Of a stretch of DNA of 64,000 nt, positions 1 through 14,411 are shown piece after piece. The translations under genes and the position numbers were made by a program. Position 1 is the first letter of the stretch. Every line of letters begins with the position of its first letter. Location: IMG/VR virus record IMGVR_UViG_3300022602_000027. One strand, 5' to 3'. Source of the stretch: a virus (Duplodnaviria; Caudoviricetes). The notes below the pieces were generated by a model. It did not search any database and was not told the origin of the DNA. It saw only the letters and a list, made by a program, of their open reading frames with translations.

Positions 1-149
1 TAGTGCAAGCAGAAGCAGACGGACTTACAGATACAGTAACGGACATAGATGTAATGACCCTGGACGCTTAAGGGTTATTACAACAGGGGTTGACAAGGCT
101 CCTGTTTTCAGTTATAATACATACTTAAATTAATTAAACAGGAGCGACA

Positions 150-833
150 ATGTTCAAATTACTTTCTACAGCAAACCCCAAAATACAAAAGGGCACCAAG
201 CTGGGCTATCTCAGCTTTATCCTGCATCTTGCGCCTAGTACTTTAAGCGGCAAGAACACTTGCCCTAAGGCTACACCCGGTTGCATCGCCGCTTGCCTTA
301 ATACAGCAGGCAGAGGCGGTATGTTTAAAAAGGGCGAAACGACTAATGCTATTCAAAAGGCACGTATCCGCAAGACTAAACAGTACTTTGATGAGCGCGA
401 GCAGTTCCTAGCAGACTTAGAAGCAGATATCCGCAAGGCTATTAAATTTGCGGCCAAGCAGGGTTTGACACCCGTATTCCGTTTGAATGGTACTAGTGAC
501 TTGAGTGTAGAAAAGTGGGGCATTATTGAAAAGTTCCCTACTGTACAGTTCTATGACTACACTAAGGTCTTAGGACGTAAGGTTAGCCACTTGCCTAACT
601 ACCACCTTACATTTAGTAAGGCAGACGGCAATGACGCTGATGTTGCAGAAGCATTGTTGCAGGGCATGAGCGTGGTGGCAGTGTACGATGAAATTCCTGC
701 GGGCGTTCCTAGTGCAGACGAAACAGACTTGCGCTTTTTGGACCCTAAGGGCATTATGCTTGGCTTAAAGGCTAAGGGTCGTGCTAAGAAGGACTACAGT
801 GGATTTGTTATCCGCATTAAGGAAGTGGCGTGA
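150..833 (+). CDS. GP88-like phage protein (radical-SAM-like Cys motif)
   Basis: CPKATPGCIAAC, FRLNGTSD, FYDYTK, DETDLRFLD and GLKAKG motifs typical of the phage GP88 family; own promoter and RBS. Confidence 0.75.
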   Translation: MFKLLSTANPKIQKGTKLGYLSFILHLAPSTLSGKNTCPKATPGCIAACLNTAGRGGMFKKGETTNAIQKARIRKTKQYFDEREQFLADLEADIRKAIKFAAKQGLTPVFRLNGTSDLSVEKWGIIEKFPTVQFYDYTKVLGRKVSHLPNYHLTFSKADGNDADVAEALLQGMSVVAVYDEIPAGVPSADETDLRFLDPKGIMLGLKAKGRAKKDYSGFVIRIKEVA

Positions 834-1057
834 AGACTAACGAAGTGATACAGTGGGTAGGAACGACATTCATCTTAATGATGTATGCCATAATGAACTT
901 CTTTCCTGAGTTCTATCCCTGGAACATTGTTACAGGCCTAGCAGGGGGCATCTGCTTCTTTGCTTGGGCGTGGCGTGTGGCTAATAGACAACAAATGATA
1001 ATCAACGGTGTGGCAATAGCCCTATGCTGTCTAGGGTTATATAAGGTGTGGGGTTGA
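830..1057 (+). CDS. Small membrane protein (about 3 TM)
   Basis: Hydrophobic 75 aa; GTGA overlap with upstream stop. Confidence 0.7.
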   Translation: MKTNEVIQWVGTTFILMMYAIMNFFPEFYPWNIVTGLAGGICFFAWAWRVANRQQMIINGVAIALCCLGLYKVWG

Positions 1058-1114
1058 CAAGAGCAAGGGTTGGCACTATAATAGAGTTATTGTTAAACAA
1101 AAGGAGCGAAACTT

Positions 1115-1348
1115 ATGCGTACAATATCAACACTCAGGAATGGCAACATCTATCAGATGGACATCAAAGAAGCCATTGAGATCGTAGAAGCTTACAAACG
1201 GGCTAACGGCCATCCTGGTATGTTGGAAGCGGTAATGGAGATGGGTGACTTGGTTGCACTGGATGAACTACCCACTATCCAGAAGGTTGCTTATCGCAGG
1301 TTTATGAAGGATATGCAGGCTCTGTTCGCACCCAAAGAAGTGGCGTAA
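1115..1348 (+). CDS. Hypothetical early protein
   Basis: Promoter 1054, RBS 1103. Confidence 0.75.
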   Translation: MRTISTLRNGNIYQMDIKEAIEIVEAYKRANGHPGMLEAVMEMGDLVALDELPTIQKVAYRRFMKDMQALFAPKEVA

Positions 1349-1358
1349 ATGCAACGAT

Positions 1359-1381
1359 CAACCCTACACTCTGTAGGGTTG
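1359..1381 (+). repeat. Promoter-associated stem-loop CAACCCTAC-ACTCT-GTAGGGTTG (copy 1)
   Basis: Perfect 9-bp inverted repeat directly upstream of the -35 at 1383; related copies at 2298-2320 and 7317-7339. Confidence 0.85.
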
Positions 1382-1437
1382 GTTGACCAAAAGTAGGATC
1401 AGCAGTATAATAAACACTTAGCAACAAAGGAGCACAT

Positions 1438-1509
1438 ATGGAATGTACACATTGTCGCAAGTGGCGCTGGAATGGATTTAAGAGCTGTCCTACAGCACCA
1501 AAGTCCTAG
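1438..1509 (+). CDS. 23-aa Cys/Trp-rich micro-ORF (MECTHCRKWRWNGFKSCPTAPKS)
   Basis: Below ORF-track cutoff; own promoter (1383/1406) and AAGGAGC RBS at 1427. Confidence 0.5.
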   Translation: MECTHCRKWRWNGFKSCPTAPKS

Positions 1510-1576
1510 TAAAAAAAAAGGGTATTATAGCCCGGGGTTGACAAATGGTTAAACCGGTGCTATAATAAAGACATAG

Positions 1577-1773
1577 ACAGTTAGAAAAGCATTAAAGGTT
1601 ACCTACACCACTAGGCGCCTAGAGAGATGGAAGCGTACCGACGGGTACCTGGTATCTAGGGCATGAAGGCTTCGAGCAACGGTGGATAAGGCAGGCAGTA
1701 ATGACGAAGGCACTAGCACTATAGACGGTATAGAGCAAGTAGTCCGGAGTTCCTTTAGTTCTTCTCTAACTGT
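1577..1773 (+). ncRNA. Unknown structured ncRNA, copy A
   Basis: Starts just after promoter 1538/1561; 22-position terminal helix 1577-1598/1752-1773; internal GACG(G)-loop hairpins; homologous to 2361-2564 with compensatory changes; no RBS or ORF. Confidence 0.75.
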
Positions 1774-1776
1774 TAG

Positions 1777-1947
1777 AGTGAAGGGTACTGCCCAAAACTT
1801 GGTGAGGATTGCACGGTAATACCGTCGGTACATGGCTAACGGAGACGTTCTGTTAGTTACACCAGTCCAAAGGATGCCAAGAAGTGGAGCCCAGGGAGTA
1901 AGCAACCTGTGGGTTCCGGACAAAGGGAAGCTTCAGTACATTTCACT
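1777..1947 (+). ncRNA. Additional structured domain (copy A locus only)
   Basis: Closing helix AGTGAA..GTACTG/CAGTAC..TTCACT; hairpins ACGGT/ACCGT, TAACGGA/TCTGTTA, GGAGCCCA/TGGGTTCC. Confidence 0.5.
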
Positions 1948-1961
1948 GTAACAGTTACACA

Positions 1962-2013
1962 GGGTGTTGGCCTGAGGGCTGAACATTAAACGAGGTGCTC
2001 GCTCAGCCCGCCC
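1962..2013 (+). ncRNA. Conserved ~52-nt three-way-junction module, copy A
   Basis: GGGTG...CGCCC closing stem, TTAAAC linker; homologous to 2576-2627. Confidence 0.6.
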
Positions 2014-2085
2014 AATCTAATTTGTGGTTGACTTTTGAAACTTTTGGTGTTACAATAGTATTTTAAACAGTAAGGAGCGAAACTT

Positions 2086-2286
2086 ATGTATGATATCGTA
2101 TCAAACCCAATCCCACGCAGTGGGTTCTATGCTACACCTTCAGACTTCAAAGAGCTGACTGCTGTCGTAGAGGCACTGAGCCCACAGGAAAAGGCCTTGG
2201 TCTATCCCTACATGATGATGGCGTTGAACACTTGCAACAAGGCAGTAGAAGACAAGATTTTGAACAGAGAGATATTTTGTAGTTAA
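2086..2286 (+). CDS. Hypothetical early protein
   Basis: Promoter 2028, RBS 2074. Confidence 0.75.
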   Translation: MYDIVSNPIPRSGFYATPSDFKELTAVVEALSPQEKALVYPYMMMALNTCNKAVEDKILNREIFCS

Positions 2287-2297
2287 AAAACAACAAT

Positions 2298-2320
2298 CAA
2301 CCCTACACTCCGTAGGGTTG
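2298..2320 (+). repeat. Promoter-associated stem-loop (copy 2)
   Basis: CAACCCTAC-ACTCC-GTAGGGTTG abutting the -35 at 2322. Confidence 0.85.
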
Positions 2321-2360
2321 GTTGACAAACAAGAAGAAAGAGACTATAATAGATACATAG

Positions 2361-2564
2361 ACAGTTAGAAAAGTGTTAAAGGTTACCTAGGCGTGCTAGG
2401 TAGTATAACCCAGCGGAAGTGACGTATCTCCGACGGGAGACCGCAGTTATACTACACGAAGGCTTCGAGCAACGGCACAGCACCTAGCAGTAATGACGAA
2501 AGCACAGAACGGGAAGACGGATCCCAAGTATGTAGACTGGAGTTCCTTTAGCGTTTTTCTAACT
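2361..2564 (+). ncRNA. Unknown structured ncRNA, copy B
   Basis: After promoter 2322/2345; uninterrupted 20-bp terminal helix (3 G-U) 2363-2382/2545-2564; TAGTATAAC/GTTATACTA and TCTCC-GACG-GGAGA stems. Confidence 0.75.
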
Positions 2565-2575
2565 AGCTGGTTACA

Positions 2576-2627
2576 GGGTGCTGGCCTAAGGGCCTAGCAT
2601 TAAACGAGGAGCTTGCTCTGCCCGCCC
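2576..2627 (+). ncRNA. Conserved three-way-junction module, copy B
   Basis: Homologous to 1962-2013 with stem substitutions. Confidence 0.6.
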
Positions 2628-2638
2628 AATCGATTTAT

Positions 2639-2701
2639 GCCCGGGAATCCACGCCAAGATCGCAACTTGGGGCAGTGAGCAGGTGAAACTCCTGCGAGGG
2701 C
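2639..2701 (+). ncRNA. Small structured element with GNRA-type loops
   Basis: GCCC/GGGC closing stem, CCAAG..GCAA..CTTGG and GCAGG-TGAAACT-CCTGC hairpins. Confidence 0.4.
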
Positions 2702-2771
2702 GCCAATGGTTGACATACTGTCGAAATGACAGTATAATATGTTTTTAACGTAAACAAAAGGAGCGAACTTT

Positions 2772-3257
2772 ATGGGTACAAGAAGCATGATCGGTATTGA
2801 GAATCCTAATACTGGCGTTGTCAAAAGCATCTATTGTCACTGGGATGGCTATCTACAGCACAATGGCTCAATCCTCAACAAACATTACAGCAACAGCCCT
2901 AAGGTCAATAACTTGATCGCACTGGGTGACTTGAGCTCATTGCGAGCAGAGATTGGTGAGAAGCACAGCTTCAGCCGTTTGGACACTGATCTAAGCGATG
3001 CAGAGTGGGACAAGCTCTACGGCGATATGTGTACATTTTACACACGCGACAGAGGCGAGACTGCACCTTACAAGCGTTTTGATAATGCTAAGGCCGCAGT
3101 GGACTACTACGATGGCAGCTGGTGCGAATACTTTTACTTGTTCAAGTACGATGAGGACTTGGAAACAGGCAAGTGGTACTTCCGTACACGCGAGTCAGGA
3201 CGTTGGAAGCGTTTGAGCACAGCATTGAAGCAGTTCAAAGAAGACGAAGTAGCATAA
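2772..3257 (+). CDS. Conserved phage hypothetical protein (MGTRS...IYCHWDGY type)
   Basis: Promoter 2710, RBS 2760; motif familiar from many phage early proteins. Confidence 0.8.
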   Translation: MGTRSMIGIENPNTGVVKSIYCHWDGYLQHNGSILNKHYSNSPKVNNLIALGDLSSLRAEIGEKHSFSRLDTDLSDAEWDKLYGDMCTFYTRDRGETAPYKRFDNAKAAVDYYDGSWCEYFYLFKYDEDLETGKWYFRTRESGRWKRLSTALKQFKEDEVA

Positions 3258-3320
3258 ACCAGAGGTGGCCCCGCTGTTAAGCGTACACATAGCAGGGGGC
3301 TACTAGACTAAGGAGCGAAC

Positions 3321-3587
3321 ATGACAGGCTTTCAAAGTAAACGAGCAATGGCTAACTCCAAAGGAGCAGGTATGAAAACAGTAAGAGTTGAAACACTATT
3401 AACACAAGAGATTGAAGTTCCTGATAACTGGGAGCGTGAGGATGTGCTAGACTTCCTAGCTGAATACCAATCATTCCGTGGAGCCTTCCAGGGTGTAAGC
3501 AATGAAGAGCAGACAGCCCGCATCGTTGACTTGGGCGTAATCGAAGAAACCATTAAAGAACTAGGAGAAGAAGCATATGACGACTAA
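3321..3587 (+). CDS. Hypothetical early protein
   Basis: RBS 3312; possible second start at 3372 behind AAGGAGC. Confidence 0.7.
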   Translation: MTGFQSKRAMANSKGAGMKTVRVETLLTQEIEVPDNWEREDVLDFLAEYQSFRGAFQGVSNEEQTARIVDLGVIEETIKELGEEAYDD

Positions 3588-3786
3588 ATTGAGTGATGTA
3601 GCCTACGATATTGAACAGCTATACATTGAAGGCTACAGGCCCGTAACCATTGCATCACAGCTGGAAATTCCATTGAGTATGGTTTATGATTGGCTAGAGT
3701 CTGTTAACGTAGAAGCAGACGGCGGATTTGTAGATGTAACCAATATGAGCGATGACGATATCAAGTACATGCTCAACAGCGATTAA
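3577..3786 (+). CDS. Small acidic protein, possible HTH
   Basis: GYRPVTIASQLEIPLSMVYDWL resembles a helix-turn-helix; GGAG RBS. Confidence 0.6.
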   Translation: MTTKLSDVAYDIEQLYIEGYRPVTIASQLEIPLSMVYDWLESVNVEADGGFVDVTNMSDDDIKYMLNSD

Positions 3787-3789
3787 AAC

Positions 3790-3835
3790 ACTAGTTCGCT
3801 CCTAGTAACCCGTGGGGGGACGGGCAAATCCCCCC
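3790..3835 (+). ncRNA. Anti-RBS hairpin followed by possible H-type pseudoknot
   Basis: ACTAG-TTCGCTC-CTAGT (3790-3806); CCCGT-GGGGGG-ACGGG-CAAAT-CCCCCC (3809-3835). Confidence 0.55.
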
Positions 3836-3942
3836 AATCCTTTCTAGATATCCTTATGGATTGTAGGGTTATCTAGAAAGCGGTTGACAGCAGAGCGGTT
3901 TGAGCTTATAATTGAGTTATAGTTAAACAAAAGGAGCGATAC

Positions 3943-4209
3943 ATGAACATTAGCACACTAGAACAGTATGTGGAGAACAAGAACAAGTGGCGAGCCGTAT
4001 TCAACCAAAAGCCTTTGAGCTTGTTGAACAAGCAGGATCGCCAGGCTATCGCTGATGGCATTGACAGCGAGATGAGCCCAGAGAACCTTACCTGCGATGG
4101 CGAACTGCCTCGCTCAGTAGTTCAACTCAAAATGCGTAATCTTACTCGTTGTGCTGAGGAACTGCTCAGCATTGATCCTTCAGTAACCTTTTACGAAATG
4201 GGAGTCTAA
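3943..4209 (+). CDS. Hypothetical early protein
   Basis: Promoter 3884, RBS 3933. Confidence 0.78.
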   Translation: MNISTLEQYVENKNKWRAVFNQKPLSLLNKQDRQAIADGIDSEMSPENLTCDGELPRSVVQLKMRNLTRCAEELLSIDPSVTFYEMGV

Positions 4210-4210
4210 C

Positions 4211-4411
4211 ATGACAATGCAGATTACCTATGCAGAACTAAAAGAGTTCATTGAGACCTTAACACCCGAACAGTTGGCCCTACCTGCCATGGTCTATGCA
4301 GGTGATGTCGATGACGCCATGACAGTGTTCGGAACCTCATTCAACTCTGACGAAGAGATGGGTGAGAGCATGCCGGATATCCCAGTTGAACAACCATTTC
4401 TTTTAATCTAA
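4211..4411 (+). CDS. Hypothetical acidic protein
   Basis: Tightly coupled ORF with GGAG upstream. Confidence 0.7.
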   Translation: MTMQITYAELKEFIETLTPEQLALPAMVYAGDVDDAMTVFGTSFNSDEEMGESMPDIPVEQPFLLI

Positions 4412-4420
4412 GGAGCGAAT

Positions 4421-5002
4421 ATGCCTAATTGGTGCAATAACACAGTTCAAATCAATCACGAAGACCCTGCCAAGATGTATGACTTGGTGCTGGCGATTAA
4501 CGAGGGTAAGTTCTGCAACTACGCCAAGCCCGTGCCTAAGGATCTGCATATCGTAGCGGGTCGGGTAGGTGATGATAACAATCCAGAGCAGATTGCGCTC
4601 GTAGAAGCGGAAGAACGCAACCTAGCCACATACGGTTACAAGACTTGGTATGACTTCGCAGTAAATGAATGGGGCACCAAGTGGGATGTTGATGCTTACG
4701 ATACAGTAGAGTATGACAGTGAGCACGACAAGAACGGCGTGACATTTGGATTTGATAGTGCTTGGAGTCCCCCAACTGGCGTTTACGAAGCCCTGTTAGA
4801 GCAAGGCTTCACTGTTAAGGCTTACTACTACGAGCCTGGCATGGCGTTCTGCGGTCAGTTCGACGAAGACGGTGACGAGTGCTTTGATATTGGCGGGTTG
4901 ACTAGTGAAACAGTCAAAGACGCTATCCCAGAGGCCTTGGACGAAATGTTTGGGATTAGTGAAACGATTGCTGAATATGAGGAAGAAGAAAATGAAGACT
5001 AA
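4421..5002 (+). CDS. DUF1281/YubB ferredoxin-like domain protein
   Basis: MPNWCNN start, WGTKWD, F.SAWSPP and YYEPGMAFCG motifs. Confidence 0.8.
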   Translation: MPNWCNNTVQINHEDPAKMYDLVLAINEGKFCNYAKPVPKDLHIVAGRVGDDNNPEQIALVEAEERNLATYGYKTWYDFAVNEWGTKWDVDAYDTVEYDSEHDKNGVTFGFDSAWSPPTGVYEALLEQGFTVKAYYYEPGMAFCGQFDEDGDECFDIGGLTSETVKDAIPEALDEMFGISETIAEYEEEENED

Positions 5003-5123
5003 TAGGGAAAAGAACTTGGCACACGATGCCAAAATGCAGGATAAGATACGCCCTAAGAAAGAATGGAATTGGGAACCGTTGGCTGAAGTGATTCGCCAAT
5101 GGAAGGCTGGTGCGAATGAGTAA
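4992..5123 (+). CDS. Small hypothetical protein
   Basis: Start re-assigned to ATG 4992, overlapping the upstream gene end. Confidence 0.5.
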   Translation: MKTNREKNLAHDAKMQDKIRPKKEWNWEPLAEVIRQWKAGANE

Positions 5124-5397
5124 ACTGAATTTCTTTAGTCGGCCCTGGGTTGCCTTTGATGCGGCCAACAAGGAGCATCGTAGGATTTACAATCAGTTCA
5201 AAAGGACAATGAGTTGGGGACACAATCCCTACAGATTTATCCTGCCCAAAGACCCTGGTTTTGATTTGGTTTCGATGATTGAAAAGTCAGTACTTTCGTA
5301 CTACATGGACAAAGAGTTTGGGCTACCTTTGCCCGTAGAAACTGATCGAAAAGATGTCCAAAATGTGCAGAATTTGGTTGACAAGCAGGCAGATTGA
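5116..5397 (+). CDS. Hypothetical protein
   Basis: Overlapping start; C-terminus (LVDKQAD) is encoded by the next promoter. Confidence 0.65.
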   Translation: MSKLNFFSRPWVAFDAANKEHRRIYNQFKRTMSWGHNPYRFILPKDPGFDLVSMIEKSVLSYYMDKEFGLPLPVETDRKDVQNVQNLVDKQAD

Positions 5398-5465
5398 GTA
5401 TACAATAGACTTATGCGTTAGAGATAATGCATACATTTTTTAACAACACACACAGAGGTAACAAC

Positions 5466-5822
5466 ATGGCTACAGATAAGACTTTTAATGTTTTTGGAGT
5501 TTCTAAATTGAACGGTGAGTACAAGGTGCGCTTTGCCAATGACGTGATGCGTATTAAGGTCCTGGCTAAACACGGTCACGAGGATATTACGCTCGTTGAC
5601 TTGGAGAAGTCAGTGACTAAGTATGAGGGTATTAAGGCTATTGCCTCTATGCCTGAGTTTGCCAATGCATCAGCACAGGCGGCTATCACTGAGTACTTGG
5701 AGGAAAAGGCTCCTAAGGCTACAGCAAAACCTGCACCTAAGGCCAAGGCTACAGCGCCTAAGGCTAAGGCAGTTACACCTGCTAAGGTTGCAGTAACAGA
5801 GGACGAAGACGCTCCTTTCTAA
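5466..5822 (+). CDS. Hypothetical protein with Ala/Lys/Pro-rich tail
   Basis: Promoter 5378; AGAGGT RBS before ATG 5466; PKATAKPAPKAK repeats suggest nucleic-acid binding. Confidence 0.75.
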   Translation: MATDKTFNVFGVSKLNGEYKVRFANDVMRIKVLAKHGHEDITLVDLEKSVTKYEGIKAIASMPEFANASAQAAITEYLEEKAPKATAKPAPKAKATAPKAKAVTPAKVAVTEDEDAPF

Positions 5823-5826
5823 GCCT

Positions 5827-6009
5827 ATGTTCCTACAGTACGAAGTATGGGCTATCACCGACCAGCATGAAGAGCTGGTCGAGTGTGTACCTACCCTAAA
5901 GGAAGCAGAAGAGATAGCAGAGAACGAACGTGAATTTTGCGATGAGGTTTACATCGTAGAAGACGCAGATGGGGACTTGAAAGAGATTAGACGATTCCAG
6001 GGCCTATAG
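5827..6009 (+). CDS. Small acidic hypothetical protein
   Basis: 60 aa ORF whose TAG stop lies inside the tRNA 5' end. Confidence 0.6.
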   Translation: MFLQYEVWAITDQHEELVECVPTLKEAEEIAENEREFCDEVYIVEDADGDLKEIRRFQGL

Positions 6010-6076
6010 CTCAGTTGGTTAGAGCAGAGGACTCATAATCCTTTGGTCCCTGGTTCGAGTCCAGGTGGGCCCACCA
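6000..6076 (+). tRNA. tRNA-Ile2 (CAT anticodon, lysidine type; Met less likely)
   Basis: Acceptor GGGCCTA/TGGGCCC + ACCA, D arm GCTC/GAGC, anticodon arm GAGGA-CTCATAA-TCCTT, GGTTCGAGTCC T arm; pattern resembles enterobacterial ileX. Confidence 0.9.
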
Positions 6077-6080
6077 ATTA

Positions 6081-6110
6081 GAAGAGTGTTGTTTTCGCGC
6101 AACACTCTTC
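6081..6110 (+). terminator. Hairpin after tRNA
   Basis: 11-bp stem GAAGAGTGTTG/CAACACTCTTC. Confidence 0.6.
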
Positions 6111-6200
6111 TCTCACGAATAACCCTACAAAAAATAAGTTATTGACACTGGGTCCAAAATGCTGTATAATACATACTTACAAAGCAAAAAGGAGCGCACA

Positions 6201-6473
6201 ATGTTAACAGCAAAGCAAAGCATCTACGCACAAGTAGCAAAAGCAAAGTTAATTTTTAATAAAAAACTTAAGACATACAAATTAGTTTGTGCTTTTAATG
6301 TTTACGAGACAAAAAAGCAGTTTAACAATGTAGTTTATAAATTTCCTGTACAAGCAAAATGCGACTATGTTAGCGGGGACTTACTTGCTACTAATTTAGC
6401 GCAAGACTTAACTGTTGCGCTTAATAGTGCTAAAAAAGTTATGCGTACAGACAACATTGTAATAGTAGAGTAA
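6201..6473 (+). CDS. Basic hypothetical protein (TC/CC-depleted)
   Basis: Promoter 6142, RBS 6191; start re-assigned to 6201. Confidence 0.72.
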   Translation: MLTAKQSIYAQVAKAKLIFNKKLKTYKLVCAFNVYETKKQFNNVVYKFPVQAKCDYVSGDLLATNLAQDLTVALNSAKKVMRTDNIVIVE

Positions 6474-6551
6474 TTTAGTAAACTAATACATAGCGCACTT
6501 GACATTTTGGAAAACGTGTGTTATACTACACGTACACTAAAAGGAGCATGT

Positions 6552-6752
6552 ATGCAAAAGCGTTTTGTAGTTGTAGCACAGGAATTGTACGTAAATGAAG
6601 CTGGAGAAAATACTAGCTATAACGGACATACGGCAATGAACTATTACATAGAGGACACTAAGACAGGCGAGGTGCGCTTGCTAGACGAGTGTATACTGTG
6701 TGACATGGAAGTGTTTACTAAACGCGATTTTAACGCATTGGAGGTAGTATAA
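6552..6752 (+). CDS. Hypothetical protein (TC/CC-free, no Pro)
   Basis: Promoter 6499, RBS 6543; start re-assigned to 6552. Confidence 0.72.
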   Translation: MQKRFVVVAQELYVNEAGENTSYNGHTAMNYYIEDTKTGEVRLLDECILCDMEVFTKRDFNALEVV

Positions 6753-6753
6753 T

Positions 6754-6945
6754 ATGACAAGCAATTACGCAAAAGCGTTTGAACTACGCAAAGCAATTAA
6801 ACTACTAAACGAAGCAGACGCTATTGTACAAGCGGCACTAGGGGCTAGCGACAACTGCTACGAAGTGCATTGTGCGCTAGAGGACTTAGAAAGTACACTA
6901 GAGGACTATGCGGACAATTTGATTGAAATGCAAATAACTGAATAA
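6754..6945 (+). CDS. Helical hypothetical protein (TC/CC-free, no Pro)
   Basis: GGAGG RBS; coupled to upstream stop. Confidence 0.72.
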   Translation: MTSNYAKAFELRKAIKLLNEADAIVQAALGASDNCYEVHCALEDLESTLEDYADNLIEMQITE

Positions 6946-6954
6946 GGAGCGAAC

Positions 6955-7302
6955 ATGCAGACAACAGGCAACAAACTAACAATTAAAAACATTACACAAG
7001 AAGACGACAGCTTAACTACGCACTACACATGCAATGAGCGAGTGGTGCTGGCTGGAGACAGTATTTGGGACTGTACACTAACAGAAGTTACAGTTACGGA
7101 CATTGTGGTACATGCTTATGAAGACTACAAAATGGTTAACGTATACTACGACGTTGACGGCGTAGAGGGTACTGAAGTTGAAGACAGCTGGCGCATGTAC
7201 ACAGACAGTGGCATGGAGGAAGCTATTAGCGTATTGTTGGGAGACAGCATTAGCTTTACAGAGCAGGGAATGCAAGAGGACGGCATAGCTAGCATGGAGT
7301 AG
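6955..7302 (+). CDS. Acidic hypothetical protein (TC/CC-free, no Pro)
   Basis: RBS 6946. Confidence 0.78.
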   Translation: MQTTGNKLTIKNITQEDDSLTTHYTCNERVVLAGDSIWDCTLTEVTVTDIVVHAYEDYKMVNVYYDVDGVEGTEVEDSWRMYTDSGMEEAISVLLGDSISFTEQGMQEDGIASME

Positions 7303-7316
7303 CATAAAAACAACAA

Positions 7317-7339
7317 TATCCCTACACTCTGTAGGGGTA
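7317..7339 (+). repeat. Promoter-associated stem-loop (copy 3)
   Basis: TATCCCTAC-ACTCT-GTAGGGGTA upstream of the -35 at 7351. Confidence 0.8.
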
Positions 7340-7410
7340 TTATACAGGGGTTGACAAATGGGCCCAATCCCTGTATAATACGAAGTATAGTAACTAACAA
7401 GGAGCGAACC

Positions 7411-7743
7411 GTGGGATACTTTACAGATTGTGATTTTGATTCAACCCTGGACATGATTGATTGTGTTAATGAGGTTGTGGAGCGTCATGTACGCAAGATG
7501 GAACGATGCACACCAAACGAACTGGGCTTGGACATGCGCTGTGGCCCTGTCTACATCGACCGCGATGAAGAAGTGATTGCTGTAAGCCACTCTAGTGCCA
7601 TTGACTACTATGGCGGCTTTGAGTATATCAAAGAGGATGAGGGTCGGAAGACTTGTGGGGATTATACATTCTTTACAACCGAGTCCAGCCGTGTACAAGA
7701 CTGCTTTGATCATTTGAACGAAGTTGACAACGAGGAAGAATAA
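7411..7743 (+). CDS. Acidic hypothetical protein
   Basis: Promoter 7351, RBS 7401, GTG start at 7411. Confidence 0.75.
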   Translation: MGYFTDCDFDSTLDMIDCVNEVVERHVRKMERCTPNELGLDMRCGPVYIDRDEEVIAVSHSSAIDYYGGFEYIKEDEGRKTCGDYTFFTTESSRVQDCFDHLNEVDNEEE

Positions 7744-8237
7744 TGAAGCGAGCCTTAGTCCTAGCCTTGTTCCTAGCCAACGGTGCCTGGGCTAAGGCTC
7801 CTGTAACCATCACCGGCCCTCAGATTATGGTAGGCGCCAAGTTACCTAACCAGACCAAGAAGGATGAGGATTGCCTAGCCTATTCTATCTTCCGTGAAGC
7901 CGGCAACCTAAACGAAGCAGGGCAGTATGCCGTGGCGCAGGTACACATCAACCGCGCCCGTGAAGGTAGCTGGGGCCCGCACCTATGCCAAGTGGTGCAT
8001 GCCAAGGCTCAGTTCAGCTGGACCAAAGAACGATATGTGGCTTGGACTAAGGATCAAGCCAAGCGGTATCATGCCATCGCCCACGCGGTGATATCAGGTG
8101 TTGTAGGTGTGCCACAGATTGCATCAACCGAGATCCTGCACTATCACGCCAACTATGTGCATCCAAAGTGGGCGGATTACGGGCAAAAGGTTGCGGTTGC
8201 AGGGCCACACATCTTCTACAAGGATGTGCCCTATTAA
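7743..8237 (+). CDS. SleB-like cell wall hydrolase (Hydrolase_2)
   Basis: Signal peptide; CLAYSIFREA..., AVAQVHINR, QFSW, LHYHANYVHPKWA and HIFY motifs. Confidence 0.85.
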   Translation: MKRALVLALFLANGAWAKAPVTITGPQIMVGAKLPNQTKKDEDCLAYSIFREAGNLNEAGQYAVAQVHINRAREGSWGPHLCQVVHAKAQFSWTKERYVAWTKDQAKRYHAIAHAVISGVVGVPQIASTEILHYHANYVHPKWADYGQKVAVAGPHIFYKDVPY

Positions 8238-8301
8238 CCCTATTGGTTGACGGGTTATCGGTTTGGTGCTATAATTAAAACATATTAACAAGGAGCGAAC
8301 G

Positions 8302-8532
8302 ATGTTACATTTTGCCAAAGAACACTACGTAGAAGTTTTATGTATGCTGGGCGGGTTTGCTTGGGGCTGGATATTCCACTCTATCCTCAACGGCATCTTT
8401 GCTCCTATTATGCGCCTGTTCCAAACAGCCAAGGTCAAGGTAGAACGGGTGCCAGTTCCTGTTCGCGTAGAGCCTACCCTGGAGCAGGACAGCAAGTTGG
8501 TTGACATGTTCAAGCGCCGCAAAGCTGGTTGA
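8302..8532 (+). CDS. Small membrane protein
   Basis: Promoter 8247, RBS 8292, N-terminal TM segment. Confidence 0.7.
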   Translation: MLHFAKEHYVEVLCMLGGFAWGWIFHSILNGIFAPIMRLFQTAKVKVERVPVPVRVEPTLEQDSKLVDMFKRRKAG

Positions 8533-8587
8533 CATCCTGCCCAAAAGGCTGTATAATATACATATACTGAAAACTTAGGAGCGAACT

Positions 8588-8833
8588 ATGTTACAAGAAG
8601 ATCAATACTGCCGTATAGTATTTGAAGGCAAAGAATACGACTCACGCCACGGTGGCCCATTCGATCGTGGCTCAGCAGACTCGTGGTACGGTCGAGGCAA
8701 GGACCCGCATTTCTATCAGGAAGGTACAGGTACTAGCCAGCGAGTTGAGCGCCTTAATGCCCAAGAGTTGGAAGCCTATTATGCGGGCTATGCCTACAAT
8801 GAGATGCATGGCGGTAAAAAGAGCTGGGATTAA
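8588..8833 (+). CDS. Conserved phage hypothetical protein (RHGGPFDRGSADSWY)
   Basis: Promoter 8529, RBS 8578. Confidence 0.78.
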   Translation: MLQEDQYCRIVFEGKEYDSRHGGPFDRGSADSWYGRGKDPHFYQEGTGTSQRVERLNAQELEAYYAGYAYNEMHGGKKSWD

Positions 8834-8896
8834 ATGGTTGACAAAAGGCCCAAAAGGCCGTATAATAGAGTTATAGTTAATTAATAGGAGCGAACT

Positions 8897-9091
8897 ATGA
8901 AATTCAACAGAACTAAGCAGGTCAAAGAAGCAGCCAAATTCCTCAGCGAAATGATCGGTGTAGACATCAAGGACTTTGACGCAGAGTACATCGAAACCTT
9001 GGCCATGGACTGCCAGTGCAACTATGAAGGCATCTGCGAAATCCTAGGCTTAGAATTGCCTGAAAGCCTTAGGCCTGTAATGGTTGACTAA
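8897..9091 (+). CDS. Hypothetical protein
   Basis: Promoter 8838, RBS 8887; ends VMVD in the next -35. Confidence 0.75.
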   Translation: MKFNRTKQVKEAAKFLSEMIGVDIKDFDAEYIETLAMDCQCNYEGICEILGLELPESLRPVMVD

Positions 9092-9145
9092 CCAGCCAAA
9101 AGGCCGTATAATACTTGTATTAGTTAATTAATTGGAGCGAACCAA

Positions 9146-9502
9146 ATGAAATTACACATCACTACCCAGTACATGGAAAACTACGGTGCCCACGATTGGG
9201 ACGGAGAAGGTGCTTGCCCCCAGCGTTGGAAGTTTAAGGGCGGTGAGGACTACTTCTATCAACTAGGTGCAGAAACACCCTCCGATGAGCACCTTGCTGA
9301 GTTGGTTCAAGCACTCCGCCCACGCTTTGAATACTCCGATGACTATGCCAGCAACACCTTAGTTGGCTACGGTGTGGTGGCAGACGACTACAGGACCGAG
9401 TTTGAGCAGAGCCAGTTGGACTATGAGGGAAGCATTGCTCACCCTGCTGTGATGTTGCAACCCTTGCCCGATGTTGTTGATTCTTACTACTATGGAGCTT
9501 GA
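9146..9502 (+). CDS. Conserved phage hypothetical protein (TQYMENYGAHDWDG)
   Basis: Promoter 9084, RBS 9134. Confidence 0.78.
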   Translation: MKLHITTQYMENYGAHDWDGEGACPQRWKFKGGEDYFYQLGAETPSDEHLAELVQALRPRFEYSDDYASNTLVGYGVVADDYRTEFEQSQLDYEGSIAHPAVMLQPLPDVVDSYYYGA

Positions 9503-9503
9503 T

Positions 9504-9686
9504 ATGAGAAGTAAACTTAACCAATTCTGCGATGTGATTGTAACCATTACCGGATTCTTGCTCATCTACGGTGTAGTAGGCGCCCTAGATGAAAGCCCTG
9601 ACGAAAACCTAGTGACTTTGTTTGCTATGGGACTCTGTGGCTTAATTCTTACATTTGCCGGTATTAATGGCTTGACAAGACGTTGA
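9504..9686 (+). CDS. Two-TM small membrane protein
   Basis: Start re-assigned to ATG 9504 after GGAG; two hydrophobic segments. Confidence 0.65.
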   Translation: MRSKLNQFCDVIVTITGFLLIYGVVGALDESPDENLVTLFAMGLCGLILTFAGINGLTRR

Positions 9687-9729
9687 ATTGAGACTATAAT
9701 AAGACTTTAAACACACACAGGAGCGAACT

Positions 9730-10017
9730 ATGTCAGTCAAACAAATCAATACCTTAATCTTCCAAACAGACTTAACCAACGATGAGCTCTCCAGCATCAT
9801 CGACGCTGTCAAGTTCAAGCGAAGCCAATTGGCACAGCGAGTCAAGTTTTCAATCCGCAAGGGCGATAACGTAGAATTCACATCCAGCAAGACAGGGCGC
9901 ATCACCCGCGGTTTTGTGGAAAAGGTTGCTATCAAATATGTCACAGTCAACACCGGAATGGGCTTGTGGCGTGTGCCGGCCAATATGCTCACAGTGGTTG
10001 ACAAAGAAGCAGTTTGA
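9730..10017 (+). CDS. Hypothetical protein, possible SH3/KOW-like C-terminus
   Basis: Promoter 9672, RBS 9720; GDNVEF..GFVEKVAIKYVTV..WRVPANML. Confidence 0.72.
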   Translation: MSVKQINTLIFQTDLTNDELSSIIDAVKFKRSQLAQRVKFSIRKGDNVEFTSSKTGRITRGFVEKVAIKYVTVNTGMGLWRVPANMLTVVDKEAV

Positions 10018-10412
10018 GCTTATAATAGTATTTTAAACAGTTAACAAAGGAGCGACACTATGTTAAAAGAATTAGATACTAAAGAAGCAGGCATCTTTGC
10101 ATTCGCGGCGGCTATGGATGCTCAGCGCCGTAATTCAAACAATAAGAGCCTTTACTCCCAAGAGCAGGTTCGCAGGGCAGTTACAGCAAGAGACTTGATT
10201 GATACAGCCTTTGCCTACACTAAACTCTACATCAACTATCGCAAGACATTCATTGCCGTTAAGGCAGAAGGTGCTCGCCGTAAAGATAGCATGGCACGAG
10301 AAGTCCTAGCCCTGTTTGAAAGCAATGGGTATGGTGTTGTATCTACGCCACAAGGGCTTATTGTTCGAATTGACAAAGAAGCAGTTTGAGACTATAATAG
10401 TATTTTAAACAG
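9998..10412 (+). repeat. 43-bp direct repeat (9998-10040 / 10370-10412) flanking one gene
   Basis: TTGACAAAGAAGCAGTTTGAG(CT/AC)TATAATAGTATTTTAAACAG; 41/43 identical. Confidence 0.9.
10060..10389 (+). CDS. Hypothetical protein
   Basis: Promoter 9998, RBS 10049. Confidence 0.75.
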   Translation: MLKELDTKEAGIFAFAAAMDAQRRNSNNKSLYSQEQVRRAVTARDLIDTAFAYTKLYINYRKTFIAVKAEGARRKDSMAREVLALFESNGYGVVSTPQGLIVRIDKEAV

Positions 10413-10429
10413 CAAATAGGAGCGACACT

Positions 10430-10774
10430 ATGCAAGGTTTTTCAAAAGAGCAGATCATTTCTACAGTACAAGGCGCAACAGAGCAGGCTGTTGAAGCGGC
10501 CAAGGCCATGTACGCTAGAGTAGGCGAGCGTGACGCATGTGGGTTTGGATGGGTTGACATCTACGTAGAGCGCACCAACTCTAAAGAAGCCAAGGCGCTG
10601 ATCGAAGCAGGATTTCGTAAGAGCTACAAACCAAAATGCCTTACACTTTGGGATCCAGCTGGTTTGCCTACACAGAGCATTTCAGTTAAGGAAGCAGGCG
10701 CACGGGCGTTCGCTGATTACTTCCGTAACATGTTCCCAGAGGCTAAGATCTACGCATCCAGCAGAATGGACTAA
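10430..10774 (+). CDS. Conserved phage hypothetical protein (ACGFGWV...QSISVKEAGA)
   Basis: Promoter 10370, RBS 10419. Confidence 0.78.
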   Translation: MQGFSKEQIISTVQGATEQAVEAAKAMYARVGERDACGFGWVDIYVERTNSKEAKALIEAGFRKSYKPKCLTLWDPAGLPTQSISVKEAGARAFADYFRNMFPEAKIYASSRMD

Positions 10775-10782
10775 GTCAAAAG

Positions 10783-10802
10783 ACTAGGGGGCAACCCCTA
10801 GT
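10783..10802 (+). terminator. GCAA-tetraloop hairpin
   Basis: ACTAGGGG-GCAA-CCCCTAGT; weak U tract. Confidence 0.5.
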
Positions 10803-10838
10803 TGTGTTATAATTACATTTTAACAATAAGGAGCGCGA

Positions 10839-11729
10839 ATGACTAAGGTTGTAACCAGTGCAATGCTAATGAATGCACAAGCAGAAGTAACCAGTTTAGA
10901 AACTGACAAAGACTACCTAAAGGCTAAGGCTGTAGCATTGGCCGCAGAGTCAGATGAAGACATTATGAAACGTTTGGGCGAGCGTTTTGAGATCTTAGAA
11001 GACATGACTCGTGCTGTCAAAGCAGGCGATGTTAGAGCTATGATTGTAACAGGACCCCCAGGTGTAGGTAAGAGCTACGGTGTGGAGCGAGTACTGTCAA
11101 AGCATGATGTGTTCGCTGATATTGCCGACGACAAGAAGCTGAAGAAGTACGAAGTAGTCAAAGGTGCTATGAGTGCTATCGGCTTGTATAAGAAGCTGTA
11201 TGAGTATTCGGACAAGAAGTCTATCCTAGTGTTCGATGACTGTGACTCAGTACTGTTAGATGACTTGAGCTTGAACATTCTAAAGGCTGCCTTAGACTCG
11301 GGTAAGAAGCGTATGATCCATTGGAATACAGATGCTCGTAGCCTTAAGGATAACGGTGTGCCCAACTCATTCGAGTTCAAAGGCGGTGCTATCTTTATCT
11401 CAAACATCAAGTTCGATCACGTTAAGAGCAAGAAGCTTCGCGATCACTTAGAAGCACTAGAGTCACGTTGCCACTACTTGGACTTGACTATTGATACTGT
11501 ACGTGAGAAGCTACTACGTATCAAGCAGGTAGTTACTGAGCACGGCATGTTGGACTCATACGACCTAGCGGATAACGAGAAGCTAGAAGTAGTAGAGTTT
11601 ATCAATGCCAATGCGGAACGTATGCGTGAGCTCAGCTTGCGTATGGTGCTTAAGGTAGCAGACATCCGTAAGAGCATGCCAGCTAAGTGGCAGAGCGTAG
11701 TAGAAGTTACATGTATGCGCGGCCGCTAG
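10839..11729 (+). CDS. AAA+ family P-loop ATPase
   Basis: Walker A GPPGVGKS, Walker B ILVFDDCD, LESRC arginine-finger-like motif. Confidence 0.85.
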   Translation: MTKVVTSAMLMNAQAEVTSLETDKDYLKAKAVALAAESDEDIMKRLGERFEILEDMTRAVKAGDVRAMIVTGPPGVGKSYGVERVLSKHDVFADIADDKKLKKYEVVKGAMSAIGLYKKLYEYSDKKSILVFDDCDSVLLDDLSLNILKAALDSGKKRMIHWNTDARSLKDNGVPNSFEFKGGAIFISNIKFDHVKSKKLRDHLEALESRCHYLDLTIDTVREKLLRIKQVVTEHGMLDSYDLADNEKLEVVEFINANAERMRELSLRMVLKVADIRKSMPAKWQSVVEVTCMRGR

Positions 11730-11788
11730 GGCTAGCGTACTGTAGGGCTAGGGCACGACATTAACTATTATAATATGCCCTAGCAGGA

Positions 11789-11886
11789 GAACAACTGACG
11801 TGATTCGCTCCCACTAGGTTGTTCGGTAGTTTGATCCTAGGAACCGTAAATCCGATTCGCTCCCGGTTGTTCCTAGGATTTTTTTT
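11789..11886 (+). ncRNA. Candidate antisense sRNA with two AUUCGCUCC loops complementary to the early RBS
   Basis: Hairpin 1 (11789-11824) and hairpin 2 (11834-11879, 11-bp basal stem) each expose ATTCGCTCC; T-tract 11879-11886; TATAAT at 11769. Confidence 0.75.
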
Positions 11887-12109
11887 GGTTGAGAGGCGGT
11901 GAGAAATCTTTTCTCGAGAGGTGGGGCCGGGGCATAGTCAACAACACAACACACAATACAGCAACAGCGCATGGGTACCGAGGTCAAATCACCACCTCAA
12001 AAGTTTAAGTACTTCTTTTATATTTTTTGCGCGGCAATTTTTTTCAACCCACAGGACCCATTTCGGGCAAAGTCCCGCTAAATATATTACTAACTTATAG
12101 GAGCGCATT

Positions 12110-12289
12110 ATGGCAGCTAAACCATATCTACACACTACAGAAATCGATTTCTTGAAAAACATCTACAAAACCATTGTAGTTGATCCTACAGCTACAGGCA
12201 CTATTGTTCGCCGTGTTGCGCATGGTATTAATGTTGACGGAATCGAAGGACCAAACGGTTTATTCACTGTAGTCAAAGTCGGACGTTAA
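12110..12289 (+). CDS. 59-aa hypothetical protein
   Basis: Below track cutoff; CTAAATA late-type element upstream, GGAGCG RBS at 12100, terminator downstream. Confidence 0.65.
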   Translation: MAAKPYLHTTEIDFLKNIYKTIVVDPTATGTIVRRVAHGINVDGIEGPNGLFTVVKVGR

Positions 12290-12307
12290 TTTAATCGTAG
12301 CCCACTC

Positions 12308-12330
12308 AAAAGGACTCTAGCAGTCCTTTT
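12308..12330. terminator. Intrinsic terminator, possibly bidirectional
   Basis: AAAAGGACT-CTAGC-AGTCCTTTT. Confidence 0.7.
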
Positions 12331-12348
12331 CTTACGATAACTATTACT

Positions 12349-12465
12349 ATGATATATGATAACTTATTTTGGTTTGTGCTTACATGTGTGCTTACACCCA
12401 TATCCAGCTTAGTGTGCTGTTGGCTTGGTGTTATACTACAGGATTTTCTCGGGCTAGAACGCTAA
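12349..12465 (+). CDS. Possible 38-aa single-TM peptide
   Basis: MIYDNLFWFVLTCVLTPISSLVCCWLGVILQDFLGLER; no clear RBS. Confidence 0.3.
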   Translation: MIYDNLFWFVLTCVLTPISSLVCCWLGVILQDFLGLER

Positions 12466-12533
12466 GTACTCCGCAAAATTTTTTTGCGCTCTAAAAATTT
12501 GACTACTGTAGACCCATTCAGCTATAATAGTGT

Positions 12534-12746
12534 ATGGATACTTCTTTACTCATTACCAAGCTGTTAGCCGCTATATTATCACTGCTAGACTCTGCCAACT
12601 TGCGTAATCGTGTATATGAACAGTCAGCTCGTATAGAGTCTTTAGAGCTAGCCATAGAGGACATAGAGCGTATTAGTGCTTCAACCGCATCAGAGTCAGA
12701 GCGATTAGACTTAATTAAAGGTATTTGTAGTCGTATTACTCAGTAA
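12534..12746 (+). CDS. Coiled-coil hypothetical protein
   Basis: Hydrophobic N-terminus followed by heptad-like helix. Confidence 0.5.
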   Translation: MDTSLLITKLLAAILSLLDSANLRNRVYEQSARIESLELAIEDIERISASTASESERLDLIKGICSRITQ

Positions 12747-13179
12747 CGGGCTTTGGTATACTAGTAGCGTATTCACCATTGGGAAACGGTTCGAAATCAC
12801 TGCCCGATTCAGGACTTGGATCTTTAGCTTGCGGGCTATTGCCATACTTAACGATCATATCCCATTCTGCATCAGATATCTTATATGCTTGTCTAATAGC
12901 TAGGCTAGTCAGCGGGAATTGTTCAGCTACTTTGAGCAATTCAGCACAGCGTTGACTATATGTTAGTGACGCAGGATCTTGATACATCATTTGTCCAGGA
13001 TTGCGTATAGTCCTGACAACCATAGCCAGCACATCACCGGGAATCATCAGCAGGCCTGCTAGACGTTGCACGAGGCCGGGTGGTTTTCCTTGGCTAGCCG
13101 CATCCTTCTTGAACGCTTGCCATATGTTGGCATAGTCCTTAAGGGTGGGGTTTTCTGTGATGAATTCTTTTGCTCGCAT
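12736..13179 (-). CDS. Putative internal head protein
   Basis: MRAKEFITE N-terminus resembles the T4 capsid-targeting sequence; CTAAATA late promoter upstream. Confidence 0.6.
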   Translation of the reverse strand: MRAKEFITENPTLKDYANIWQAFKKDAASQGKPPGLVQRLAGLLMIPGDVLAMVVRTIRNPGQMMYQDPASLTYSQRCAELLKVAEQFPLTSLAIRQAYKISDAEWDMIVKYGNSPQAKDPSPESGSDFEPFPNGEYATSIPKPVTE

Positions 13180-13272
13180 TGTATATTTAGTGTTGGGCTA
13201 CTGGCATCAGAACGCTAGTTTGCGTTTTCCGCTGGGCTTCGCCTAGTAAAATTTTGCTTGCCGCTTCGCGAG

Positions 13273-14334: not shown

Positions 14335-14411
14335 TGTAATTCCCGTTTAATTCATTTATTTATTATAATATACTGGGTGAATTAAGATAAATACTCTAAA
14401 CGGGATATCTT

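Follow-up and report, generated by a model that had tools for sequence, protein, structure and literature searches.

The window analysed here is a 64,000-nucleotide stretch (IMG/VR record IMGVR_UViG_3300022602_000027) whose source is an uncultured freshwater or lake jumbo T4-like phage. At the 3′ end of one of its early operons, a small hairpin carries in its loop the complement of the ribosome-binding site (RBS) used by the early genes. A compact pseudoknot follows at the position of a terminator. The unusual part of the locus is 3787–3846. We explain it, with middling confidence, as an anti-RBS element of the 3′ untranslated region (3′UTR) that ends at a pseudoknotted terminator and pairs with early ribosome sites. 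The features that carry this explanation are listed here.

3577–3786, + strand: 69-aa early gene, tentatively three-helix and helix-turn-helix (HTH)-like; in carriers of the element the hairpin always lies 3′ of the homologue's stop codon
3790–3806, + strand: anti-RBS hairpin, with stem ACTAG 3790–3794, loop TTCGCTC 3795–3801, and stem CTAGT 3802–3806
3809–3835, + strand: H-type pseudoknot, with stem 1 (S1) 3809–3813 paired with 3820–3824, stem 2 (S2) 3814–3819 paired with 3830–3835, and loop 3 (L3) CAAAT 3825–3829
3836–3846, + strand: interrupted U-rich tail (AATCCTTTCTA; AAUCCUUUCU) after S2

An anti-RBS hairpin conserved at a stop codon

The early block of the window (bases 1–12,000, about 45% GC) consists of small + strand open reading frames (ORFs) and has 13 perfect TTGACA-17-TATAAT sigma-70 promoters. 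Its ribosome sites take the extended form (T)AGGAGCGAAC(T)ATG, with GGAGCGAA as the tag. Counted on both strands of the 64 kb, the tag occurs 15 times (0.74 expected) and only in the early block. Twelve copies are + strand ribosome sites. The remaining three read on the + strand as the anti-tag word TTCGCTCC, the reverse complement (at 3795, 11804, and 11856), and all three are intergenic.

The hairpin ACTAG-TTCGCTC-CTAGT is read directly at 3790–3806, just 3′ of ORF 3577–3786, where an earlier reading of the letters alone (the sequence-only reading) had placed it. Its 7-nt loop is complementary to the early tag with flanks, and the complement of the full 15-mer CTAGTTCGCTCCTAG is an early ribosome site including its flanks. 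The reverse complement of 3792–3804 (minus strand), TAGGAGCGAACTA, matches the leaders at 8576–8588 and 8885–8897 at 13 of 13 positions, in agreement with that reading, and 9718–9730 at 12 of 13. Four sites of this type are present in the window against 0.06 expected. Overall, the complementarity of the element to early ribosome sites spans 8–13 nt.

The element is conserved in relatives. CTAG-(T/AG)TCGCTC-CTAG is found at the stop of a homologue of the 69-aa gene in 13 distinct phage sequences from IMG/VR and JGI metagenomes, as the 15-mer CTAGTTCGCTCCTAG or a one-insertion variant of it. The exact 17-mer is present 3′ of the homologue's stop in two other contigs. These carriers were obtained with longer patterns; a loose pattern (CTAGNNTCGCTCCTAG) gave 100 matches in IMG/VR, nearly all of them chance hits in unrelated contigs. 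With sequences anchored at the hairpin, mean pairwise identity is 0.94 in the hairpin, 0.39 in the 60 nt of coding sequence upstream, and 0.49 in the 40 nt downstream. Loop and stem are invariant in 12 of the 13 diverged carriers. The outermost stem pair is G:C in most of them and A:U in the window and in two relatives (L089 and L107; relatives are named by such handles where they must be told apart). In most carriers the stop codon TAG itself lies in the 5′ arm (…AAC AGC TAG TTCGCTC CTAG C…). Judged by these comparisons, the 15-mer is under strong purifying selection in the 13 related sequences, and this part of the earlier proposal of selection on the anti-RBS seed stands.

The location in the 3′UTR also held up. 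The element lies on the coding strand between the stop codon of the 69-aa gene (TAA, 3784–3786) and a terminator-like hairpin (3813–3836), and the order is the same in relatives. It travels with the upstream gene and not with the downstream promoter or gene. The gene 3′ of the hairpin varies among carriers (four arrangements). Hence, the hairpin is part of the upstream transcript, and an artefact of an inverted cassette junction is rejected. Upstream of the 88-aa gene that follows in the window, no such hairpin was present in any of 80 relatives examined, though promoter and RBS are conserved there. The sequences give no support to an independent origin of the module, as had been supposed; it is inherited along with a single gene family and accompanies about 15% of the contexts of that family. 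Transcription most likely starts at the following promoter, which would drive an operon of genes 2772–3257, 3321–3587, and 3577–3786 ending at the element.

2710–2738, + strand: perfect sigma-70 promoter TTGACA-17-TATAAT (P2710); no other strong promoter from there to 3786

The constant link to one small gene raises the possibility that the 15-mer, with its CTAG...CTAG dyad, is not an antisense seed but a site bound, as RNA or DNA, by the HTH-like product or by a phage or host RNA-binding factor. The strict conservation, which includes the stem, and the dyad symmetry would fit such a site. The 69-aa protein has sub-threshold Pfam HTH matches and no DUF1127 match. Its AlphaFold2 model has pLDDT >90 over residues 11–40, and Foldseek gave weak matches to resolvase, DeoR, and LuxR DNA-binding domains (probability 0.97 but E ~0.5 for resolvase and DeoR). 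Together these give a weak indication of a three-helix HTH-like protein, and at E ~0.5 this counts against a bound site rather than for it. About 85% of the gene's homologues lack the site, and the exact complement of the site recurs at more than 12 places in the block, something for which an operator would have no need. We consider a protein site quite improbable.

Two observations concern the 69-aa gene itself. Lake-water metatranscriptome assemblies from three separate studies hold contigs identical to the gene (3552–3782), and so the phage or its RNA was present in RNA libraries, with DNA carry-over possible. In homologues, the TGA stop is often the first bases of the next −35 element (…GGA/GCT TGACA…), with no spacer (for example L003, L008, L020, L232, and L262).

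A covarying pseudoknot at the terminator position

The hairpin is followed by AA and then by CCCGT (3809–3813), GGGGGG (3814–3819), ACGGG (3820–3824), CAAAT (3825–3829), and CCCCCC (3830–3835). The topology of the G6/C6 H-type pseudoknot described in the sequence-only reading is present in these letters, and the architecture (S1, loop 1 (L1), S2, S1′, L3, S2′) is common to eight carriers with different sequences.

Window: S1 CCCGU, no L1, S2 GGGGGG, S1′ ACGGG, L3 CAAAU, S2′ CCCCCC
L057 type: S1 CCCUG, L1 A, S2 GGGGGCC, S1′ CAGGG, L3 CAUU, S2′ GGCCCCC
L225: S1 CCCAG, L1 C, S2 GGGGGGC, S1′ CUGGG, L3 CAUU, S2′ GCCCCCC
L024: S1 CCCUG, L1 U, S2 GGGGCCC, S1′ CAGGG, L3 UAUU, S2′ GGGCCCC
L213 and L230: S2 GGGGGUC, S2′ GGCCCCC (with a U·G pair)

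Covariation was assessed in the seven relatives that align without gaps (17 pairs), and the window was compared by hand. All 119 cells of the test are paired, and three pairs are changed on both sides (one in S1, two in S2). This level was reached by one of 500 shuffles, and partners slid by one column fall to 53–59% paired. In the window, S1 has GU:AC where relatives have UG:CA or AG:CU; with the window included, one S1 position shows three pair types and another shows two. Because of the compensatory changes in S1 and S2, the sequences indicate that both helices are under selection; the sample is small (eight sequences), and each compensatory event was seen once or twice. In the relatives, an L1 of 1 nt spans the 7-bp S2 and an L3 of 4 nt spans the 5-bp S1. 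This is the classical compact H-type geometry (Pleij rules). The window has an L1 of 0 nt, which is sterically borderline, and one junction pair probably opens.

A regular-expression scan of 2.4 Mb of related sequence gave a GC-rich pseudoknot of this kind at this module only. The other matches were promoter-spacer dyads or AT-rich chance matches (70 registrations, several per site, against 16–26 in shuffles). The Rfam search with the element gave nothing at the gathering score, and its weak matches to blv_FSE and microRNAs are chance. A preQ1-type riboswitch was considered and rejected, with no Rfam match and loops that are too short.

The terminator scanner flags the S2 hairpin of the window (3813–3836) as terminator-like, with a GC stem of 6–8 bp. 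The S2 hairpins of L057 and L225 are not flagged since their loop of 9 nt is one over the limit of the scanner (8 nt). Directly 3′ of the window pseudoknot stands AATCCTTTCT. In relatives, S2 is followed by AUUCUUUUGG, ACCCUUUUGG, or ACUUUUUUGG adjoining TTGACA; the tail (ATTCTTTTGG or ACTTTTTTGG) thus abuts the next −35, and the U-tract after the GC stem reads AUUCUUUU or ACUUUUUU. T-runs before promoters occur in the clade only after hairpins. Because a U-rich tail follows S2 in relatives and adjoins the next promoter, S2 is best read as the terminator stem, with S1 predicted to lock the terminator loop to its 5′ flank. At the pseudoknot position, L071 has a canonical terminator with an 8-bp GC stem and then T7, and L089 and L107 share this hairpin but lack the T-run. 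The plain hairpin in these three lineages means that the pseudoknot is a variant 3′ structure and not a requirement of the anti-RBS hairpin. The earlier suggestion of a pseudoknot-protected RNA is thus retained for part of the carriers and dropped for these three.

The same placement would suit a 3′ end that acts by its structure only. The element would then serve to terminate or stabilise the mRNA and would be coupled to a PeSL-like stem-loop and early promoter, as in the hyperplastic regions of T4-type phages, and the RBS match would be a leftover inverted RBS copy that has no pairing function. The pseudoknot or hairpin sits exactly as the clade's T-run terminators do before other promoters. 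Repeated cassettes of stem-loop and promoter are present, the gene order around them is mosaic, as for PeSLs (PMC2839356, PMC4122927), and seed and tag do not covary. A purely structural element should, however, tolerate changes in the loop, and here loop and stem of the small hairpin are invariant in 12 of 13 carriers while the pseudoknot stems change with compensation. The small hairpin would add almost nothing to the stability of the 3′ end (−2.2 kcal/mol), and the anti-RBS word recurs in the loops of unrelated structures. We regard a structural role without pairing as unlikely.

We also considered stop-codon read-through, in which UAG and a downstream pseudoknot, as in murine leukaemia virus gag-pol, would yield a C-terminally extended 69-aa protein. 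UAG is indeed the stop in most carriers, and the frame beyond it stays open across the pseudoknot as far as the TGA of TTGACA. The stop in the window, however, is TAA, and the frame closes after 4–9 codons in L024, L026, and L089. The compensatory changes in the pseudoknot are non-synonymous in the would-be peptide, and the pseudoknot begins about 15 nt after the stop instead of about 8. Read-through is disfavoured and we give it hardly any credence.

Predicted pairing with early ribosome sites

The 106-nt stretch 3780–3885 folds with z = −3.6. Taken alone, the anti-RBS hairpin is a weak fold of −2.2 kcal/mol; in the ensemble, the 7 nt of its loop stay over 90% unpaired. The UUCG at the start of the loop conforms to the YUNR U-turn pattern known from fast-pairing antisense loops; this is a lead, not a test. 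When the whole 64 kb was searched for duplexes with the element, the top partners were early ribosome sites. Co-folding of 3787–3846 with each early leader gave net energies of −9 to −20 kcal/mol, compared with −3 to −7 kcal/mol for shuffled leaders. The two predicted targets with full 13-nt complementarity are given here.

8576–8588, + strand: RBS of gene 8588–8833, the best predicted trans target; 13/13 complementary, net −19.5 kcal/mol against about −3.6 for shuffles
8885–8897, + strand: RBS of gene 8897–9091, the second 13/13 predicted target, by complementarity

The anti-RBS word is also found in the loops of at least three other types of 3′-end module in the clade. These are a double-hairpin unit resembling a small RNA (sRNA), terminators with the loop ATTCGCT, and a module 3′ of another gene. 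TCGCTCC is enriched on the early strand of loci that use the GGAGCGA tag (1.8 vs 0.7 per locus). The window holds one such unit besides the element.

11789–11886, + strand: sister element, an sRNA-like unit with two ATTCGCTCC motifs and a T-run terminator

The element may instead act in cis only. Here the 3′ anti-RBS would pair with sites of its own polycistronic mRNA (2759, 3311, or 3561) and loop the transcript, either to limit translation of the operon, and with it of the HTH-like regulator, or to shield the transcript from decay. Three stretches of the operon are indeed complementary: AAAGGAGCGAACT over 11 nt, TAAGGAGCGAAC over 10 nt, and ACTAGGAG over 8 nt, the last being the Shine–Dalgarno (SD) sequence of the 69-aa gene itself. 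No leader is predicted to bind better than that of gene 3321 (net −20.1 kcal/mol). The hairpin goes with a single gene family throughout, and in most carriers the stop codon lies in the stem, which links unmasking of the seed to the translation of that gene. Against this, most carriers and homologues have an SD other than CTAGGAG at the 69-aa gene, and most tagged early operons lack such a 3′ element. Stand-alone RNAs that bear this seed are encoded in the clade as well, and these must act in trans. We think action in cis only rather unlikely. Pairing with the gene's own SD was rejected as a conserved feature, since ACTAGGAG occurs in the window and L003 only. A minus-strand gene start at the reversed RBS was rejected as well: the window offers only GTG-TTT-TAA there, and relatives have no start.

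Pairing with early ribosome sites as a class is our preferred explanation, and several results weigh against it. The extended 13-nt matches are not kept in homologues of the target genes 8588, 8897, and 9730. The module is present in only about 15% of some 70 distinct contexts of 69-aa homologues and is thus dispensable; in most non-carrier contexts the stop runs straight into, or overlaps, the next −35. No covariation between seed and tag was found for the module, and the carriers share one tag, GGAGCGA, which every one of them uses. Phages with GGAGCAC, GGAGCAG, or GGAGCTG tags yielded no variant loop, and the variant loop of L024 (AGTCGCTC) matches a minor tag only. The hairpin has a weak 5-bp stem with the stop codon inside it in most relatives, so translating ribosomes must open it. 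The U-tract of the window is interrupted and a second long hairpin follows it, so termination may be inefficient. Finally, assembled lake metatranscriptome contigs (2–5× depth) cover 3552–3782 exactly, and none of those listed crosses 3783–3954, a coverage too sparse for RNA ends.

The mechanism that we propose for pairing in trans can be set out as follows. The element would form the 3′ untranslated end of the early operon that runs from P2710 to the 69-aa HTH-like gene. Its small hairpin would show UUCGCUC in the 7-nt loop and CUAG in the 3′ arm, the complement of the early tag (U)AGGAGCGAAC(UA). The compact pseudoknot stands 2–3 nt further on, and its second stem together with the U-rich tail would serve as an intrinsic terminator. 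Transcripts from P2710 would end at this terminator or be trimmed back to it. Such transcripts, or a 3′ fragment of about 55–60 nt that outlives the body of the mRNA, would then carry an exposed anti-RBS loop on a nuclease-resistant 3′ structure. The loop would pair first with the SD-plus-spacer of early mRNAs and the duplex would extend over 8–13 bp, which would block binding of the 30S subunit and damp translation of early genes. The element might work while still attached to the mRNA or as a 3′ remnant that survives it, alongside the putative stand-alone double-hairpin RNA at 11.8 kb. On present sequence evidence it is probably a built-in RNA brake on early-gene translation, with stability of the RNA, pairing in vivo, and repression all predicted steps.

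Neighbourhood, known systems, and significance

The region 3′ of the element (3837–3912) is an ordinary PeSL-like cassette of the phage. Its features and the gene behind it are listed here.

3837–3884, + strand: long imperfect hairpin of 48 nt, unique to this phage at this locus
3884–3912, + strand: perfect sigma-70 promoter in front of the 88-aa gene; 80 relatives conserve both promoter and RBS there
3932–4209, + strand: RBS AGGAGCGA (3932–3939) and 88-aa gene (3943–4209), which bound the RNA element and are not part of it

The inner part of the long hairpin (3852–3868) is a degenerate copy of a CCCTACA-N4-GTAGGG stem-loop found at 1362, 2301, and 7320. Each of these, like the copy at 3852–3868, lies just before a TTGAC(A/C) promoter. 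The 88-aa gene is a very widespread early gene. It is present on more than 585 IMG/VR contigs at 57–94% identity, always behind a consensus promoter, and its protein has no Pfam or PHROG match.

Other repeated structures were noted in the early blocks. Many early promoters have self-complementary spacers, such as TTGACAACTAACC…TAGTTGTATAAT; the promoter at 2710–2738 reads TTGACA-tactgtcgaaatgacag-TATAAT, and relatives have such spacers at L003 7873, L008 3780, L034 3099, L044 7276, and L085 2900. The promoter DNA or its 5′ flank is consequently able to form a hairpin. The intergenic word GGCCCCGCTGT (CCCCGCTGT) recurs 3′ of several early genes (window 3258–3300; L007, L107, L238, and L271), and in the window it belongs to a GC-rich hairpin at 3266–3300. 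A further ACTAG…CTAGT-type hairpin is present at 10783–10802 (ACTAGGGG-GCAA-CCCCTAGT), 3′ of gene 10430–10774, and CTAG-bearing stems recur among the intergenic hairpins of the early block.

Relatives hold the anti-RBS word in further arrangements. Directly 3′ of the stop of a gene ending in '...GYKALALGL*', the word (TCGCTCC, or TTGCTCC with other tags) is followed by a hairpin with a covarying stem and the conserved loop GGTAGTGT (…CCCGGG-GGTAGTGT-CCCGGG…) and then by a C-run. This module is found at L014 7648, L015 3747, L020 5602, L027 9889, L042 8508, L048 11492, L084 10618, and L095 9548, with variants at L004 6879 and L025 12006. It looks like a distinct conserved RNA motif. Terminators with the word as their loop (CCCCGG-ATTCGCT-CCCCGGGG, then T9 and TTGACA) are present at L064 5052–5140, L072 4760–4840, L073 5061–5140, and L081 5094–5175; a second copy of the word lies directly 3′ of a gene stop. 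At L052 4316 the word is paired in cis with an RBS-like mimic (CGCTCC…GGAGCG), and in units of the L077 type (L077 9922, L086 8410, and L094 9876) an upstream GCGAA faces the loop TTCGC. Such a mimic in cis may represent a masked state of the seed.

The large terminase of the phage shares about 51% identity with its counterparts in Pseudomonas phage PA5oct and Sinorhizobium phage Phosso, and sheath, helicases, and a DnaB-like gene lie 3′ of it in the window. A search of phage DNA with the window gave no cultured relative at the DNA level, and the DNA sequencing runs that contain the stretch are freshwater and lake metagenomes. There is a marked compositional break within the genome, with about 45% GC and positive GC skew in 1–16000 and 31–41% GC in 16000–64000. 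A 528-aa ORF at 61441–63027 matches Pfam Trp_halogenase (E = 3e-105), a family of flavin adenine dinucleotide (FAD)-dependent tryptophan halogenases.

The P1/P7 c4 antisense RNA is cut from a longer transcript and pairs through its loops with phage mRNA close to a ribosome site. It has one specific target (icd-ant), lies upstream of it in the same operon, and is not known to have a terminator pseudoknot or a regulon-wide tag. In bacteria, CpxQ, DapZ, and SroC are 3′UTR-derived sRNAs that share the intrinsic terminator of their mRNA. MicL is another (PMC4102768). The phage element resembles this group in its conserved seed between stop codon and terminator, with the terminator as the 3′ end. 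It differs in that its 3′ structure is a pseudoknot in many carriers and its putative targets are a whole class of ribosome sites of the same genome; its processed RNA is a prediction from sequence.

The closest analogue is the CcsR or 'cuckoo' RNAs of Rhodobacter and other alphaproteobacteria (PMC8034643; PMC4615179), whose anti-SD hairpin loops are processed from the 3′UTR of a gene for a 71-aa protein (PMC8034643). Both systems have an anti-SD in a loop, the 3′UTR of a very small gene (71 aa there, 69 aa here), and co-transcription, which in the phage is read from the sequence. The cuckoo loop motif is CCUCCUCCC, and the phage loop UUCGCUC has only CUCC in common with it. The cuckoo RNAs consist of several tandem two-hairpin units with a DUF1127 partner and a cellular stress regulon, whereas the phage has a single hairpin and pseudoknot, an HTH-like neighbour, and an early regulon whose private tag reaches beyond the SD on its 3′ side. 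The phage lacks both the defining motif and the partner gene, and so cuckoo RNAs are an analogue and not the family of the element.

A one-nucleotide loop crosses the 7-bp stem 2 of the T2 gene 32 pseudoknot. The T2/T4 gene 32 mRNA has a compact H-type pseudoknot of two coaxial GC-rich stems in its 5′ leader, where it is the gp32 operator (PMC3014915, citing Holland et al. 1999). That pseudoknot is a 5′-leader protein operator, while the one described here is a 3′ end that would double as a terminator stem. PeSL cassettes of T4-type phages have a stem-loop or terminator directly upstream of a near-consensus early promoter, repeated in the hyperplastic early block with mosaic gene order (PMC2839356, PMC4122927). 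The likeness to them is limited to 3837–3912, and PeSLs were described without an anti-RBS hairpin or pseudoknot. The T4 endoribonuclease RegB and repressor RegA recognise ribosome sites of early mRNAs, RegB through GGAG and its 3′ context, and shut off early translation (PMC3014915). The analogy is functional only, as these are proteins and the putative recogniser here is an RNA with GCGAA as the discriminating context. The phage element is best classed as a known kind, a 3′UTR-embedded anti-SD RNA, that is new in its phage setting, its private tag, and its pseudoknotted terminator.

Beyond this locus, we tentatively propose that a clade of freshwater jumbo T4-like phages marks its early mRNAs by a private SD extension (GGAG-CGAA) and controls them through several independent RNA modules that show the complement in 3′-end loops. 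The locus described here would be the mRNA-embedded version, with a seed unmasked by the terminating ribosome and a pseudoknotted terminator as its 3′ end, and the whole would be an RNA-only counterpart of the T4 RegB/RegA shut-off. A terminator loop locked into an H-type pseudoknot is an unusual 3′-end design. If the pairing is functional, the tag and its complement would form a natural, compact, and orthogonal pair for translational control. A virulent phage would time or limit translation of its whole early class by RNA alone, through a private tag and antisense loops at 3′ ends. This would add a post-transcriptional layer to the early/middle/late cascade that in T4-type phages is known only through the proteins RegB and RegA.

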